A stretch of DNA of 64,000 bases from a virus (Duplodnaviria; Caudoviricetes). This document shows, piece after piece, positions 8,916 through 39,504 of this stretch; within the stretch, counting starts at the first letter, position 1, and every line of letters begins with the position of its first letter. Where the stretch lies: IMG/VR virus record IMGVR_UViG_3300027766_000001; one strand, given 5' to 3'. A model generated the notes under the pieces. That model saw nothing but the letters and a program-made list of their open reading frames with translations. It was not told the DNA's origin and did not search any database. Position numbers and translations under genes: made by a program.

Positions 8916-9782
8916 ATGCGTGTACTGGCTATGAATCAGTTTGAGAACATGATTCGTTATGATGCGGACCTGCGCAACTACGGAAAGTTTTCTGTCTACA
9001 ATCACCCTACTGCCAAAGACGACAACCTGGCAGTGGTCTACATCCAGATCAACGGCCCACAGTGCTATGCCTTGAAAGTCACCCGTCTGATGGTGAACCC
9101 GGTTAACGTCGACGTCACTGACCTCACGGCTGCGGTGCGTAAACTGGAAGCGGATCTCGGTACCCGCTGGAATAACGGCCTGTTAGCCATCACAGCGCGT
9201 TCACTTCGTTACACAGGTGAATTTACCAACCTTATTAAAGAAAGCCCGCTGAAGGCGTTAGAGGAGGTCCTGAAAGACCCTCTGGGCTTTGACACCGAGT
9301 ACCAGAGCTTTGAAGTACCTCAGGCGATGAAAATGATCGAAGGTGCTAACCTGACCGAGATCACTAACTGGATCCAGAACAACAACGCCACGGTGCGCAG
9401 CTACATTCACTACACGAATGAAGGTGAGCAGTTTGTGGTGCTGGGTCGCCAGTTCCGTGAAGAATCGTTCCTGATGCTGACGTCGTACAACCCCGATAAA
9501 CTGGTGGCGTACTTCGACGGTATGGTAGCGGGTCGTCCGGTGCATCAACGTGTGGCGCTGGAACCGAACAGCTTCCAGGGCGACAAGTTCTTCATGGACC
9601 GCATGGGCAGAAACCCGGTCGAGCATTATGGCTCACTGTGGCGTCTGCGTCACTTCGGTACGGTTGTGACCGAAGACAAAGAACTGTACGTCCGTGGTCC
9701 GCACATCGCTGCTCGCGATCAGTTGAACATTCCTTCACAGGACGACTTCGACTTCTCTGAAAACCGCATCATCGTTATTTAA
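8916..9782 (+). CDS. Hypothetical early protein
   Basis: 288 aa from ATG 8916 with AAGGA RBS; first gene after the early promoter. Confidence 0.75.
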   Translation: MRVLAMNQFENMIRYDADLRNYGKFSVYNHPTAKDDNLAVVYIQINGPQCYALKVTRLMVNPVNVDVTDLTAAVRKLEADLGTRWNNGLLAITARSLRYTGEFTNLIKESPLKALEEVLKDPLGFDTEYQSFEVPQAMKMIEGANLTEITNWIQNNNATVRSYIHYTNEGEQFVVLGRQFREESFLMLTSYNPDKLVAYFDGMVAGRPVHQRVALEPNSFQGDKFFMDRMGRNPVEHYGSLWRLRHFGTVVTEDKELYVRGPHIAARDQLNIPSQDDFDFSENRIIVI

Positions 9783-16180: not shown

Positions 16181-16238
16181 CATAAAACTCCTCCACTCAT
16201 TACCCAACCAGGTAGTGAGTGCGAGGGTTTATGCCGGC
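16181..16238. terminator. Long hairpin flanked by CATAAAA and TTTATGCCG between divergent genes
   Basis: CACTCATTACC-CAACCA-GGTAGTGAGTG stem with the TTTATG-type flank on both strands. Confidence 0.5.
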
Positions 16239-16254
16239 TTTATGTAATACAGGA

Positions 16255-16283
16255 AATCTCAAGTCTATATTACTGAGGTGATA
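16255..16283 (+). promoter_or_regulatory. Phage early promoter (TATATTAC)
   Basis: AAATCTCAAGTCTATATTACTGAGGTGAT; core at 16266-16273. Confidence 0.7.
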
Positions 16284-21051: not shown

Positions 21052-21136
21052 GGCGGTGTCGCATAGCGGCAATTGCAGGGGACTGTAAATCCCCCGACTT
21101 CGGTCTTCGATGGTTCGAGTCCATCCGCCGCCACCA
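21052..21136 (+). tRNA. tRNA-Tyr (GTA), 85 nt, CCA encoded
   Basis: Acceptor GGCGGTG/CGCCGCC-A-CCA; anticodon arm GGGGA-CTGTAAA-TCCCC; long variable arm; T-arm GATGG-TTCGAGT-CCATC. Confidence 0.97.
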
Positions 21137-21411
21137 ACTTTGTTCAGGTAAGAGGCACAGGTCTGGCTGGTAACCAACCTGCAGCGATGATCGCGTAGAC
21201 CTACGGCATACCCATAAGTCCGTAAGAGCCGAACACATAAAGGACTACTGTTCCATCTGGATCAGGTAGGTGTTCTGATCGCTGACTGATTACTCGATAC
21301 GACAAGGCCTACACAGCCAACCCTAAACACCGAAATTAAGTTAATGGGCAAATGCATTCATGTTCAGGAAACCACATCTCGCTGACAGCTTTCAGCTTAG
21401 TGGAGATGAAC

Positions 21412-21714
21412 ATGAACATTTATAAAGTGGAACGTACTGACAATCTGGATTGGGATGAATTTGGGGGCATGGTCGTAATTGCTGCGTCTGAGGATGCTGC
21501 TAGGTTACTGCACCCCGGGGTCGTTCACCAATCTAATTGTGATGAAGTGCTGGATTGCATTAAGGAGTCACTGGAACAATTTGAGTGGGAAGCTAAGCGG
21601 TATCATCCGTCCTGGGTTCTACTCAAAGACGTCCATACTCTGCGCGTTACCCTAGTGGGAACAGCACACGCATCGTCCGCTGCTGTGATCCTTACGGATT
21701 ACAATGCCGGTTAA
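21412..21714 (+). CDS. Conserved small phage protein
   Basis: MNIYKVERTDNLDWDEFGGMVVIAASEDAARLLHP resembles a recurrent phage family; GGAG RBS. Confidence 0.7.
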   Translation: MNIYKVERTDNLDWDEFGGMVVIAASEDAARLLHPGVVHQSNCDEVLDCIKESLEQFEWEAKRYHPSWVLLKDVHTLRVTLVGTAHASSAAVILTDYNAG

Positions 21715-21719
21715 CTTAA

Positions 21720-21742
21720 GTCCGGGCATGACCCGGACACCT
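21720..21742 (+). ncRNA. tRNA acceptor-like microhelix
   Basis: GTCCGGG-CATGA-CCCGGAC-ACCT; outer 6 bp and the following ACCTATTC are identical to the tRNA-like element at 22430. Confidence 0.45.
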
Positions 21743-21750
21743 ATTCAGAA

Positions 21751-21836
21751 TTAGATTGATAGCAGCCAATGGGCTTTCACCCCATCACGCCCGGCTGACG
21801 GGAGCGGCGATCAGTCTAAACCCGAGTGCACTCGGG
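21751..21836 (+). ncRNA. Structured RNA element plus perfect palindrome
   Basis: TTAGATTGAT/ATCAGTCTAA closing stem with inner CAGCC/GGCTG and ATGGG/CCCAT; 16-bp palindrome CCCGAGTGCACTCGGG at 21821-21836. Confidence 0.5.
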
Positions 21837-21845
21837 CACCCTTTT

Positions 21846-21931
21846 GAGGTTTCGGACAGCTGCGACTTTCAACTAAGTCATACTCGCTGAAGCCGACCGG
21901 ACTGTACGAATTGCAGTCTGTCCTTAACCTC
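21846..21931 (+). ncRNA. Structured RNA element (multi-branch)
   Basis: GAGGTT-GGACAG-CTGCGA paired with TTGCAG-CTGTCC-AACCTC; inner GACTT/AAGTC hairpin. Confidence 0.5.
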
Positions 21932-22035
21932 GATCCATTTAACATGATGAAGCATACCAAGAGTACGTGAGCGGAACTTGATCCCAATCACATCTGTTTA
22001 TCCATGCGATGATAAACTACTCGAGGAAATTCATT

Positions 22036-22422
22036 ATGTTGAATAAAGAAGTGCTGTTAGCCCTGACCCCGTCTCTGACCGGCTTTAAAGATGAAGACCA
22101 TGACTACGGCCAGGTCTGGTATGACGAATGGTACTTCCGCGTGGAGAACCATGAACGCTACCATATCGTCTTTGGCTGGTATGAGTACGAGGATTACTCA
22201 GGACATTCCTATGTCTTTGGTTACGACAAGGAAGAGGATAAGTTCTTTGAAGTGGTCGCCTACCATTGCTCCTGCTACGGCTTGGAGGAAGGTTGGGATC
22301 CTGAGTACTTCGAATCAACAGCGTTACTGGCTGATTACCTGGCGAAGTTCAAGGGTAAAACCTACTCTTCAGGTCAGCTGACTTTGGTTGCGTTCTTGAA
22401 AGAGTGCGGAATCGAAGTATAA
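22036..22422 (+). CDS. Conserved small acidic phage protein
   Basis: 128 aa, GAGGA RBS, HCSCYGLE motif seen in a recurrent phage family. Confidence 0.75.
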   Translation: MLNKEVLLALTPSLTGFKDEDHDYGQVWYDEWYFRVENHERYHIVFGWYEYEDYSGHSYVFGYDKEEDKFFEVVAYHCSCYGLEEGWDPEYFESTALLADYLAKFKGKTYSSGQLTLVAFLKECGIEV

Positions 22423-22429
22423 CCGAATC

Positions 22430-22529
22430 GTCCGGATAGTTTAATAAGAACGGTGCGCCGGAATGCCCTTAAACTTACTAGGGGTGGTGTGCGCACAGGT
22501 GGTGGGGTCTGATCTCCCTCCGGACACCT
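22430..22529 (+). ncRNA. tRNA-like RNA A (expanded anticodon arm, degenerate T arm)
   Basis: 7-bp acceptor GTCCGGA/TCCGGAC-A-CC; T8A9 plus D-arm GTT-TAATAAG-AAC; GTGCGC/GCGCAC stem enclosing 32 nt; AGGT variable segment; weak GGGG/CTCC T-arm. Confidence 0.55.
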
Positions 22530-22538
22530 ATTCTCAAT

Positions 22539-22690
22539 GCTGGCACTAGCCAAACGGAAAGGCTTATACTTGGACGCTGAGTCGACGCAGTTATCAGCCA
22601 GGTATAGATTGCTCTGACAACACCATGTCATCATTAGACAATGTGATGTCATCATTATCGGGTTCGAGTCCCGGTGTGCTTCAGCTACCT
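22539..22690 (+). ncRNA. tRNA-like RNA B (expanded anticodon and variable arms)
   Basis: D-arm TA-GCC-AAACGGAAA-GGC; canonical T-arm ATCGGG-TTCGAGT-CCCGGT; acceptor GCTGGCAC/GTGC(TT)CAGC followed by T-ACCT; TATACTTGG/CCAGGTATA in place of the anticodon stem. Confidence 0.65.
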
Positions 22691-22691
22691 C

Positions 22692-22810
22692 TTTGTCGTT
22701 AGCCTGATGAGTCGCCGACATTAAACGCGACGAAACGTAGAACATGAAATTCATCCACTGAGGATTCACCACCTCGGTGCCCGCTAGGCATGTTCTATGT
22801 AGCAGTGAAG
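22692..22810 (+). ncRNA. Hammerhead ribozyme, type I, with pseudoknot
   Basis: CTGATGA 22704-22710; stem II GTCGC/GCGAC; GAAA 22732-22735; 12-bp stem III (A)CGTAGAACATG/CATGTTCTATG(T); GTA cleavage triplet ending 22801; stem I GC/GC; loop II CGACA complements TGTCG 22694-22698. Confidence 0.85.
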
Positions 22811-22975
22811 ATTCATTGACCAAGGTGTCTCGAACTTACACAGCCTTCTGCTCATCGGGTCACTCCCGGTACCAAGGTGAGCAGCGGGGTGTGGTAATTT
22901 GTCCGGTTACTGCGTCAAGGGCTGTAGGGGTATGGTCCTGGTTTTATCCTCAGATGTTCCATGTGAAAGCGGCTA

Positions 22976-23008
22976 AACCCCGGGGGTAACACCTCGGGGT
23001 TTATGCCG
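22976..23008 (+). terminator. Terminator closing the RNA island, TTTATGCCG class
   Basis: AACCCCGGGG-GTAACA-CCTCGGGGTTTATGCCG. Confidence 0.8.
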
Positions 23009-23025: not shown

Positions 23026-23050
23026 ATTTCAAACCTATATTACACTGGTG
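23026..23050 (+). promoter_or_regulatory. Phage early promoter (TATATTAC)
   Basis: ATTTCAAACCTATATTACACTGGTG; core at 23036-23043. Confidence 0.7.
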
Positions 23051-37376: not shown

Positions 37377-37452
37377 ATTACCATGGTAATTTCATTCGCG
37401 AATGTTAAATATAAGTGGCCCCGCCACTGAACACCAAAAAGGAACAAGCAGT

Positions 37453-39504
37453 ATGAAAACTCGTAACGACCAGCCGCAACCAGCTAACAACTCTCTGGCC
37501 GATGCACTGAACCAGGCGAACGCACAGCAGCAGCCTCAGGCACAACCGCAGGCGCAGCCACAACCTCAGGTTCAACAGCCGCAGGGTACTGCTCAGCAGC
37601 AGCCGATCTTCCAGCAGCCGCAACAGGGCTTCGCTGGTCAGGCGCCGCAGCAGGATGGCCAGGATCGTAACTCTAAGATCTTCGGTCTGAACAACCGCAT
37701 GTCGCGTACCTTCTCTTCTCAGACCTATTCTGAGAACTTCAAGATCGCGAACGAAGCGGTGCAGGAATTCTGCAAACCGTACGAAGGTGATGGCTTCAAC
37801 CAGACCTTCTTCGTAATCCCACTGCAGGACCAGAACCTGCACTGTGCTGCACTGATCTACGTCATGGCTATCAGCCAGTCCGCTTACGGCGTGTACACCT
37901 ACATGCTGGAAAACACCGGTAGCCCGCTGAAGCCGCTGGTAGGTAACGACCAGTTCACTGGCGAGCGCTATGAGCTGCCGCGCATGACCGGTTCTCAGTA
38001 CGATGATATCTACTGGGGTGCCGTGAAGGGCGCAGTAATCCGTCATCTGAAACTGCAGAACAACTCTGCTGTCCAGATCATGGAAGCTGGCGCGGGTGTT
38101 ATCCATGCGGAAATGGATTGGAAAGACGGTGGCGCAATCGGTCGTCTGCTGAACAACGCAGAAAACGCCGTGTACGCTTACGCGAACCGCATCTCTGGCT
38201 ACAAGATCGAAGAGCCGCTGAACCTGGCAACTGCGATCAACCCGCTGGTTGACCGTCTGTCCGCTGGTTTCAACTTCAATCCGCAGCCTCTGATTACGGC
38301 TGATGGTCAGCCGATGCGCAACGACGTAGAGATCAAACTGACCGTGTCTTCTGAAGGCAACGTGCAGGTACAGAACTCTGAGCCGTTCACTACCGTTCAC
38401 GGTTACGTGGAACTGGTAAGCGCAGGTCCGCAGCCGGTCATGATCCCGAACGGTTACGGTCAGATGATGCAGGCGCCGCAGCGCTACTACCCGCAGCTGG
38501 CAATCACTGCCGTTGACCAGGGTATCTTCGACGCAGAAGCACCGGAGTTCCAGGTGCTGGGTCTGTACGTAGCCACCCTGTTGCTGGAAAACAACAACTG
38601 GATGAATGCGTTCGCACCACGTATGGTCGGCGGTGTTGATATCAACGATATCGGCGCACTGAACTACGAACTGCGCATGGGCGTGGATCCGCAAGATCCT
38701 AACGCGCGTCCGAAGAAGATCGATACCAAAACGCACGAGTTCAACAACAACGCACTGCAGCAGCTGCTGAGCCAGGCGTGCTTCCCGAACATGTCCGTAG
38801 TCATGGACATCGAAGAAACTGGTCACCGTAACTGGGTGAACTCCATGTTCCTTCAAGCGGGCGGTATCCCGGGTTCTAACGCAACCATGCTGCCGCAGGA
38901 CGGCCGTCTGGCGCACGAAGCAGTTATCGCTGCTGCGAACAACCTGACCAATGGCGAGTTCAGTAAGTTCTTTACTGACACTACCAAACTGATCACTATC
39001 CGTGACGGTTCTCGTATCCAGGGTGGTTACTACCTGAGCGACGATGGTAAGCGTCTGGACGTTCGTAACGTTGACCTGGTAGCAGTACTGAACTTCCTGG
39101 GTGAATCTGATCCGCGTCGCGTTGAAGAATGGAAAATGATCTGTTCTTCTACCTCTGGCCTGTCTGGTCCGAAACGCATCGCACTGCGTCAGCAGTTCCT
39201 GCAGACTATCCTGGGTGCATCGTACGTGCAGAAATGCTACTACGAGCGCGTCATGATTTCCAACGACTTCCTGGCCGCACTGCGTTCTGCAATCATCGCA
39301 GCCGGTGTTCAGGTTCGTCCGGAGAACATGTCTAACCAGTACAACGCCATGTCTTACGGCATGCCGCTGGCCGCACAGTATGGCTTCAACACCCATACCG
39401 CGTCTTCGCTGCAGGCTGCAGGCTACGGTCAGCTGGATCAGCAGGGTCGTGTCGTACAGTTCGGTAACTACCGTACTCCGTTCGGCCACTTCAACGTCCA
39501 GTAA
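37453..39504 (+). CDS. chmA: Chimallin, major phage nuclear shell protein
   Basis: 683 aa; extremely optimised codons; immediately upstream of the nvRNAP beta-prime gene and two genes from the DNA polymerase (phiKZ gp54 synteny); Q/P-rich N-terminal extension. Confidence 0.85.
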   Translation: MKTRNDQPQPANNSLADALNQANAQQQPQAQPQAQPQPQVQQPQGTAQQQPIFQQPQQGFAGQAPQQDGQDRNSKIFGLNNRMSRTFSSQTYSENFKIANEAVQEFCKPYEGDGFNQTFFVIPLQDQNLHCAALIYVMAISQSAYGVYTYMLENTGSPLKPLVGNDQFTGERYELPRMTGSQYDDIYWGAVKGAVIRHLKLQNNSAVQIMEAGAGVIHAEMDWKDGGAIGRLLNNAENAVYAYANRISGYKIEEPLNLATAINPLVDRLSAGFNFNPQPLITADGQPMRNDVEIKLTVSSEGNVQVQNSEPFTTVHGYVELVSAGPQPVMIPNGYGQMMQAPQRYYPQLAITAVDQGIFDAEAPEFQVLGLYVATLLLENNNWMNAFAPRMVGGVDINDIGALNYELRMGVDPQDPNARPKKIDTKTHEFNNNALQQLLSQACFPNMSVVMDIEETGHRNWVNSMFLQAGGIPGSNATMLPQDGRLAHEAVIAAANNLTNGEFSKFFTDTTKLITIRDGSRIQGGYYLSDDGKRLDVRNVDLVAVLNFLGESDPRRVEEWKMICSSTSGLSGPKRIALRQQFLQTILGASYVQKCYYERVMISNDFLAALRSAIIAAGVQVRPENMSNQYNAMSYGMPLAAQYGFNTHTASSLQAAGYGQLDQQGRVVQFGNYRTPFGHFNVQ

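Follow-up and report, generated by a model that had tools for sequence, protein, structure and literature searches.

We analysed a 64,000-nt stretch of DNA from a tailed phage (Duplodnaviria; Caudoviricetes; IMG/VR record IMGVR_UViG_3300027766_000001), hereafter the window, and focused on an island at positions 21052–23008 in which a tRNA gene, two small protein genes, several structured RNAs and a hammerhead ribozyme fold follow one another on the + strand (Table 1). An initial annotation, made from the sequence alone, had described the island as non-coding; two real protein genes lie inside it, since both of the small open reading frames (ORFs) noted at the time belong to phage protein families. 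The tRNA-Tyr that opens the island was recovered as described, and is the only segment that an ARAGORN or Rfam call, a 7-nt anticodon loop and standard distance mark as a canonical tRNA. Our reading, which we consider reasonably probable, is that an early transcription unit ends in this conserved cluster of RNAs and that its transcript is cut both by self-cleavage and by host processing.

Table 1 Features of the island and transcription signals of the window (all on the + strand).
Feature	Position	Description	Basis
tRNA-Tyr (GUA)	21052–21136	CCA encoded	ARAGORN; Rfam RF00005, 52.7 bits
Block A	21137–21345	conserved non-coding structured RNA directly 3′ of the tRNA	conservation; RNAalifold
ORF1	21412–21714	phage protein, 100 amino acids	phrog_5444, E 2.2e-20; 5/5 lineages
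Minihelix 1	21720–21741	acceptor type; 7-bp stem and 5-nt loop (21720–21738), then ACC	fold; alignment
Structured insert	21746–21840	ends in minihelix 2 (21821–21836, then CACC)	fold z −2.9
Block B	21844–21933	long conserved hairpin RNA	fold z −5.1
ORF2	22036–22422	phage protein, 128 amino acids	phrog_8792, E 4.3e-23
RNA C	22430–22528	tRNA-like, cloverleaf	consensus fold, 5 lineages
Element D	~22576–22692	tRNA-derived	sequence; alignment
Hammerhead	22694–22807	type I, pseudoknotted	intact core; stems I–III and pseudoknot covary over 17 family members
Hammerhead 5′ pseudoknot strand	22694–22698		
Hammerhead stem I	22699–22703 with 22802–22807		
Hammerhead core	22704–22710	CUGAUGA	
Hammerhead stem II	22711–22715 with 22727–22731	5 bp; loop II 22716–22726 (11 nt)	
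Hammerhead GAAA	22732–22735		
Hammerhead stem III	22736–22746 with 22789–22799	11 bp	
Hammerhead U16.1, A17	22800, 22801	predicted cleavage 22801/22802 (A22801, G22802)	
F RNA	22802–23008	207 nt, predicted cleavage site to terminator	conserved fold
Terminator hairpin	22975–23008	phage-wide UUUAUGCC(G) tail	signature site; kept in all relatives
Nearest upstream early promoter motif	16265–16273	CTATATTAC; phiKZ type	motif search; sequence contexts
Next early promoter motif	23027–23050	TTTCAAACCTATATTAC, N4, GTG; opens the following unit	motif search
Early promoter motif copies	8861, 16265, 23035, 29380, 37359, 43638, 45646, 51344, 56441		motif search
Terminator signature sites	6327, 11352, 16228, 23000, 27288, 29354, 33888, 39549, 45597, 50400, 51246		
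Nuclear shell protein gene	37402–39504	chimallin	phrog_4795, E 2e-148

Searches for related phages found Salmonella phage vB_SalM_SA002 (SA002) and Erwinia phages pEa_SNUABM_48 (pEa48) and pEa_SNUABM_37 as the closest GenBank records, with 73–77% identity over the island, which is annotated there with the tRNA-Tyr and hypothetical proteins only. The same locus lies on three IMG/VR contigs, and the closest relative, an IMG/VR contig, has a flanking gene 95% identical to that of the window in nucleotides and 94% at the protein level. We compared the island in a six-sequence alignment (the window, its closest relative, SA002, pEa48 and UViG11242 among them), and counts are given per five lineages. 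The order of blocks in the alignment is tRNA-Tyr, block A, ORF1, minihelix, a lineage-specific insert, block B, ORF2, C, D, hammerhead, and F with the terminator. Block A is 77–79% identical to the distant relatives at the nucleotide level, as against 67–70% for the adjoining coding sequence, with which block F (70–74%) is about level. Non-coding blocks carry insertions and deletions (indels) whose lengths are not divisible by three.

Covariation in related phages, which the initial annotation had proposed as a check, was found for C, for F and for the hammerhead family, and the pattern of substitutions indicates that all three are under selection for RNA structure. RNA C consists of a 7-bp acceptor stem followed by ACC, a D arm, a bulged T-like arm and a lengthened anticodon arm, which is 14 bp long in two parts (6 bp, internal loop, 8 bp) and is capped by an invariant 7-nt loop, AACUUAC (22472–22478). 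Across the five lineages 97.4% of cells pair, and 13 of the 31 pairs are changed on both sides, compared to 0–3 in slid controls; the acceptor, D and T-like stems are all present with covariation. C departs from a canonical tRNA in the A at the U33 position, the over-long anticodon arm and the non-canonical T loop. It received no ARAGORN call and no Rfam tRNA match at E-values up to 10, and a covariance model built from it matches a real tRNA-Leu weakly (20.7 bits). Because no detector calls C and its anticodon arm is too long, C is tRNA-like and not a decoding tRNA. Structural selection thus acts, on the covariation evidence, on at least one tRNA mimic whose anticodon arm is expanded.

The second of the two tandem tRNA-like folds originally described, element D, is present but degenerate. 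It has a canonical T arm (22659–22673) and is otherwise expanded and degenerate, with a fold z-score of only −1.1. D occurs in three of the five lineages in a form that differs in each, and the window copy differs strongly even from that of the closest relative, despite the 95% identity of the flanking gene. D also contains a 12-nt direct repeat (ATGTCATCATTA; 22625–22636 and 22646–22657), which suggests a recent duplication or slippage in a fast-evolving segment.

Downstream of the ribozyme, F has 64 consensus pairs, with 94.7% of cells pairing and 17 pairs changed on both sides vs. 0–4 in slid controls, so that the further structured RNA of the initial annotation stands as to structure, its length being 207 nt and not ~170 nt. 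A closing helix for F (22802–22808 with 22907–13) fits the window and its closest relative and is shifted by 3 nt in register in SA002 and pEa48; we preferred the in-register alternative, 22805–22810 with 22836–22841, which has three covarying positions and which, after cleavage, would sequester the stem I strand. A 70-amino-acid ORF across this region (22777–22989) was rejected as coding, as the indels of the relatives there are not multiples of three.

The complete hammerhead core reported earlier was confirmed by synteny and by covariation in the family to which it belongs. The window copy has the invariant nucleotides (C3 U4 G5 A6 N7 G8 A9, G12 A13 A14, A15.1–U16.1, and H17 not G), and the GCAGUG that follows A17 is able to pair with the nucleotides immediately preceding the core, giving a type I topology; a pseudoknot can form between UGUCG and CGACA. 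The hammerhead is syntenic in five related lineages, each of which keeps the invariant core: in pEa48 the sole core change falls at the free position N7, and UViG11242 carries a compensatory change in stem II. RNAalifold output for this region was disregarded, as it mis-paired the core.

We then defined a subfamily of 17 distinct sequences from pattern scans of IMG/VR and JGI/ENA metagenomes, and tallied its pairs by script without a covariance model, since MAFFT misaligned the 3′ halves of compact hammerheads. Stem I positions 1–4 are paired in 17, 17, 16 and 15 of the 17 members, with 3–5 pair types each; all five positions of stem II are paired in every member and positions 2–4 covary; and stem III positions 2–5 keep pairing with 2–5 pair types each. 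Within the core, N7 varies between U and C and H17 among A, C and U, to the exclusion of G; the rest is invariant. An invariant GUCG, 6 nt 5′ of the core, is complementary to an invariant CGAC of loop II, and a fifth pseudoknot pair is formed in 16 of 17 members by four Watson–Crick types (UA in four, AU in six, CG in five, GC in one, one mismatch). These tallies show the subfamily to be a sharply defined branch of pseudoknotted type I hammerheads. The hammerhead is real at the family level, and the family is very likely catalytic.

In a single window the bare core motif is not significant (one found vs. 0.55 expected; 42 of 100 shuffles held at least one), and the significance of the hammerhead rests on its synteny in five related phages and on covariation across the 17 members. 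That same evidence effectively refutes a reading in which intergenic DNA has come to resemble a hammerhead and tRNAs by chance: shuffled windows would readily produce the core pattern and the Rfam scores lie under the gathering threshold, but chance would not place the motif in synteny in five lineages, nor repeat one architecture 17 times in distinct sequences while every helix, and the pseudoknot too, covaries. We regard this reading as extremely improbable.

A search of 185,579 species genomes of bacteria and archaea gave no match to the subfamily. All members lie on phage-like contigs, several of them over 170 kb, and among GenBank phages only the three relatives named above carry it, at an unannotated site. 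A compact relative scores 26.1 bits in Rfam, below gathering. The sequence motif was not found in the searchable literature, including the supplements of Perreault et al. 2011, nor did the literature searched hold a paper linking hammerheads to jumbo or phiKZ-type phages. The typical member follows closely on the end of a tRNA or tRNA-like element. A tRNA-Leu ends 2–5 nt 5′ of GUCG at loci L010 and L016, a tRNA-Arg or tRNA-Met ends 9–17 nt 5′ of it within tRNA arrays at L076 and L079, a T-arm-plus-CCA element takes the same place at L077, and in the clade of the window the ribozyme comes after the tRNA-like D or C. The element at L077 (~2510–2610, + strand; same in L078), which has a canonical T arm and CCA and no ARAGORN call, is itself a candidate tRNA-like RNA.

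On their 3′ side, family hammerheads are followed by a structured RNA of ~200–260 nt and then by an amidoligase gene, more tRNAs or, in the window, the terminator. At L009, L010 and L016 the hammerhead precedes a conserved structured leader of ~230 nt and a gene; the L016 product, the one tested, matches Pfam Amidoligase_2, and those of L009 and L010 are similar to it N-terminally. At L076 (~220–470, − strand) and L079 (~8925–9170, + strand) the hammerhead precedes a shared conserved RNA with a long hairpin and then tRNA-Asn, and this RNA may be another unnamed structured RNA.

Several observations weigh against the proposal of a self-cleaving, host-processed transcript, most of them at the window copy. 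Its best Rfam match is Hammerhead_3 at 30.3 bits vs. a gathering threshold of 48.5; this type III model imposes the wrong topology on it. The copy is the most deviant of the 17, alone in having a 5-nt linker between pseudoknot and core (6 nt in the others), and its stem I is the weakest, with an A–A mismatch at position 3 that leaves two G–C pairs and one G–U pair. Mutagenesis has shown that hammerheads can become slower by orders of magnitude when the spacing around the pseudoknot is changed (PMC3088659). Thermodynamic folding puts the hammerhead-compatible fold of the window copy 6 kcal/mol above the minimum free energy, whereas in the closest relative the two coincide in energy. Self-cleavage by the window copy is therefore uncertain as judged from its sequence. 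In addition, covariation for A, B, C and F was drawn from five sequences representing about 3–4 independent lineages, and a 7-bp minihelix is at most a putative substrate of RNase P.

Such features invite the view that the island is a decaying tRNA array, in which the tRNA-like pieces are relics, the window hammerhead has been inactivated by its stem I lesion, and the elements persist through recent divergence or hitch-hiking. The state of D (degenerate, internally duplicated over 12 nt, divergent from a close relative and missing in two lineages) would fit, as would the weakest stem I, the unique 1-nt deletion of the hammerhead and the gain and loss of inserts between lineages. However, the helices of C and F survive many double substitutions, and relics would not keep 13 and 17 compensatory pairs; block A is better conserved than the flanking coding sequence and F about equally so; and the invariant hammerhead core is intact in every lineage. 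We therefore judge decay to be an unlikely account of the island.

The phage context bears on when the locus is transcribed. The source is a nucleus-forming jumbo phage of the phiKZ or Chimalliviridae type, in agreement with the initial annotation: besides the nuclear shell protein, the window encodes several split RNA polymerase beta-type subunits (multisubunit, phage-encoded). A recurrent intergenic + strand motif (TTT..CTAYATTAC, N4–5, GTG), found by motif search of the window, agrees with the promoter consensus of phiKZ, 201phi2-1 and EL (PMC7058600, Table 2), and one copy lies directly 5′ of the nuclear shell protein gene. The phage-wide terminator signature is a G+C-rich hairpin followed by TTTATGCC(G), with 11 + strand sites in the window, and the promoter motif often lies no more than ~30 nt 3′ of such a site.

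Between the terminator signatures at 16228 and 23000 lies no further copy, which upholds the earlier claim of co-oriented elements on one transcript without an intervening terminator. From the spacing of the signatures together with the promoter motifs we infer that the island forms the 3′ end of a transcription unit of ~6.7 kb, which likely starts at the 16265 promoter motif. The unit has what characterises early units of the phiKZ group, namely a TATATTAC-type promoter motif, a hairpin terminator and a phage multisubunit RNA polymerase. A scan for sigma-70 promoters gave matches at chance level only. A terminator-like site at 22918–22939 was dismissed, as its U-run is not conserved.

Under the explanation that we favour, the long primary transcript would probably be cut into discrete products in two ways. 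First, the type I hammerhead, steadied by a pseudoknot of 5 bp in which loop II pairs with the 5′ flank of stem I, is predicted to cut between A22801 and G22802. The ribozyme would remain on the upstream fragment, ending it in a 2′,3′-cyclic phosphate, and the cut would free the 207-nt F RNA with a 5′-OH, extending to the terminator. The initial annotation had the ribozyme release tRNA-shaped RNAs; this does not fit, as a single cut is possible and would free F instead. Second, the tRNA-Tyr, the two ACC-tailed minihelices, C and the degenerate D would serve as punctuation marks for the host, to be recognised by RNase P and by the enzymes of 3′ trimming or CCA addition, as happens in the phage T4 tRNA operon; this would also part the messages of ORF1 and ORF2. 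We propose this dependence on RNase P and 3′ processing because 7-bp acceptor helices in the minihelices and in C are followed by ACC; in bacteria, RNase P RNA pairs with the RCC of the tRNA 3′ end. What the phage gains from the ribozyme may be a defined end that host RNases need not make, together with a 5′-OH that stabilises the downstream RNA, as a 5′-OH end is a poor substrate for the 5′-monophosphate-dependent RNase E pathway. It would also uncouple the downstream RNA from tRNA processing. Furthermore, RNase P cleaves hairpin and non-tRNA phage RNAs in addition to tRNAs (reviewed in PMC11143913).

The early timing, in a unit of the virion RNA polymerase type, is also what would be expected of anti-defence decoys, whereby the tRNA-shaped RNAs, the lone tRNA-Tyr and perhaps F titrate or replace the targets of tRNA-directed defences or toxins (anticodon nucleases, PARIS, retron PtuAB, colicin-type), processing being a mere means to that end. 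The only tRNA kept is Tyr, plus Asn in pEa48, and both fall in the QUN-anticodon group targeted by colicin E5 (PMC1635277). The invariant AACUUAC loop of C on a covarying stem is, moreover, what a recognition surface would show. This loop lacks U33, though, and its arm exceeds by ~9 bp the length that would let it mimic an anticodon stem-loop within a tRNA frame; UViG11242 has no tRNA-Tyr and two lineages have no D; family searches found no defence-related protein family adjoining the island; and nothing in the sequence points specifically to decoy function. We consider decoys improbable, somewhat more so than decay. We give a similarly low probability to a broader conjecture, that the hammerhead with the GUCG/CGAC pseudoknot is a dedicated, host-RNase-free punctuation device of phage tRNA arrays, a counterpart of opposite polarity to the theta ribozymes, and that in nucleus-forming jumbo phages the early products (the tRNA-Tyr, C and the F RNA with its 5′-OH) serve to decoy or regulate those host factors whose targets are tRNAs or RNA ends.

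The remaining elements of the island vary in how widely they are kept. The tRNA-Tyr is present in four of the five lineages and missing from UViG11242. The consensus fold of block A comprises 44 pairs, seven of them changed on both sides (RNAalifold), and that of block B is kept in five lineages with four such pairs. The acceptor microhelix of the initial annotation was recovered as minihelix 1 (−13.8 kcal/mol, z −4.4), which is kept in five lineages with one compensatory U–A to C–G change, and a second one lies at 21821–21840. The insert that ends in this second minihelix is exclusive to the window and its closest relative in the alignment, being absent from SA002, pEa48 and UViG11242. These three have, instead, ~120 nt of additional structured sequence inserted between block A and ORF1 (L001:1845–1975, L002:1842–1972, L004:4775–4905), missing from the window and its closest relative, which bear a 93-nt insert at 21746–21838. 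ORF2 occurs in three lineages, with a replacement in pEa48 and none in UViG11242. Family and protein searches gave no functional lead for either ORF, the protein atlas returning only viral hypothetical proteins for ORF1. A run of 26 nt within ORF1 (21638–21663) is invariant in all five lineages despite varying neighbour codons, and may mark an RNA or DNA element that lies within the gene.

An Rfam scan at permissive E-values gave no credible match for A, B, C, D or F; the matches discarded were microRNA-type noise and the terminator hairpin read on the wrong strand. Motif scans of IMG/VR with blocks A and C found matches confined to the same clade. A 15-nt F motif had 58 loci in IMG/VR, which were judged chance matches and not used.

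C and F are new structured RNAs of Chimalliviridae-type phages, which keep transcription physically apart from host enzymes and whose early RNA biology is little understood. If the hammerhead cleaves, a second class, from large phages of enterobacteria and the environment, would join the HDV-like theta ribozymes of gut phages as tRNA-linked self-cleaving ribozymes, which would point to a general phage strategy of RNA processing built into the transcript. The subfamily lies below Rfam thresholds and is unannotated in its GenBank relatives, so that phage annotation would gain from a model dedicated to it. The locus also supplies candidates for a 50-year-old question, the role of the tRNA-like stable RNAs of phages.

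Compared with known systems, the minihelices and C resemble the non-tRNA substrates of RNase P, such as the P1/P7 C4 antisense RNA precursor, M3 RNA and the 4.5S RNA hairpin precursor (PMC11143913), in having a helix followed by an RCC(A)-type tail, although here the helix is only 7 bp and the substrate putative. The tRNA-like folds may likewise be compared to plant mitochondrial t-elements and tRNA punctuation (PMC1920247), in which such folds in polycistronic transcripts are signals for RNase P and RNase Z and so set the ends of mRNAs; that system is organellar and not of a phage, cleavage here is predicted, and the resemblance is in a possible mode of working only. The T4 tRNA operon has genuine tRNAs followed on the same transcript by stable RNAs of 100–140 nt with tRNA-like parts, among them rnaC (species 1) and rnaD (species 2) at the distal end of the cluster. 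T4 rnaC, with its canonical T arm and expanded arms, resembles element D by architecture only, and neither sequence similarity to C nor a match to its covariance model was found in the T4 tRNA region. Unlike the present island, with its interleaved protein genes and minihelices, the T4 region has no ribozyme.

The hammerheads closest in kind are the type I ribozymes with a stem I/stem II pseudoknot, including phage and prophage cases, which were proposed to process long RNAs (Perreault et al. 2011, PMC3088659). The subfamily shares with them the core (C3–A9, G12–A14, A15.1–U16.1, non-G H17), the three helices, the pseudoknot that holds stems I and II, and an origin in phage transcripts. It differs in its fixed pseudoknot strands (N-GUCG/CGAC-N), constant 6-nt linker and 11-nt loop II, in its tight placement after tRNA or tRNA-like 3′ ends, in its restriction to phage-like contigs and in its sub-gathering Rfam score. 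Finally, theta ribozymes, which are HDV-like and adjoin phage tRNAs, were proposed to process them independently of host RNases (Kienbeck et al. 2024, PMC10879173), and by analogy the hammerhead subfamily would be another small, self-cleaving class immediately 3′ of phage tRNA genes. Rfam scans of the window and the region gave no match to the HDV family with its nested double pseudoknot. The two classes would work with opposite polarity: an HDV-like ribozyme cuts at its own 5′ edge and trims the tRNA trailer, whereas a type I hammerhead, with its cut at the 3′ edge, is left on the side of the tRNA and would set the 5′-OH end of the next RNA. They also differ in range, as theta ribozymes belong to gut phages of Bacteroidota and Bacillota and the hammerhead subfamily to enterobacterial and environmental jumbo phages.

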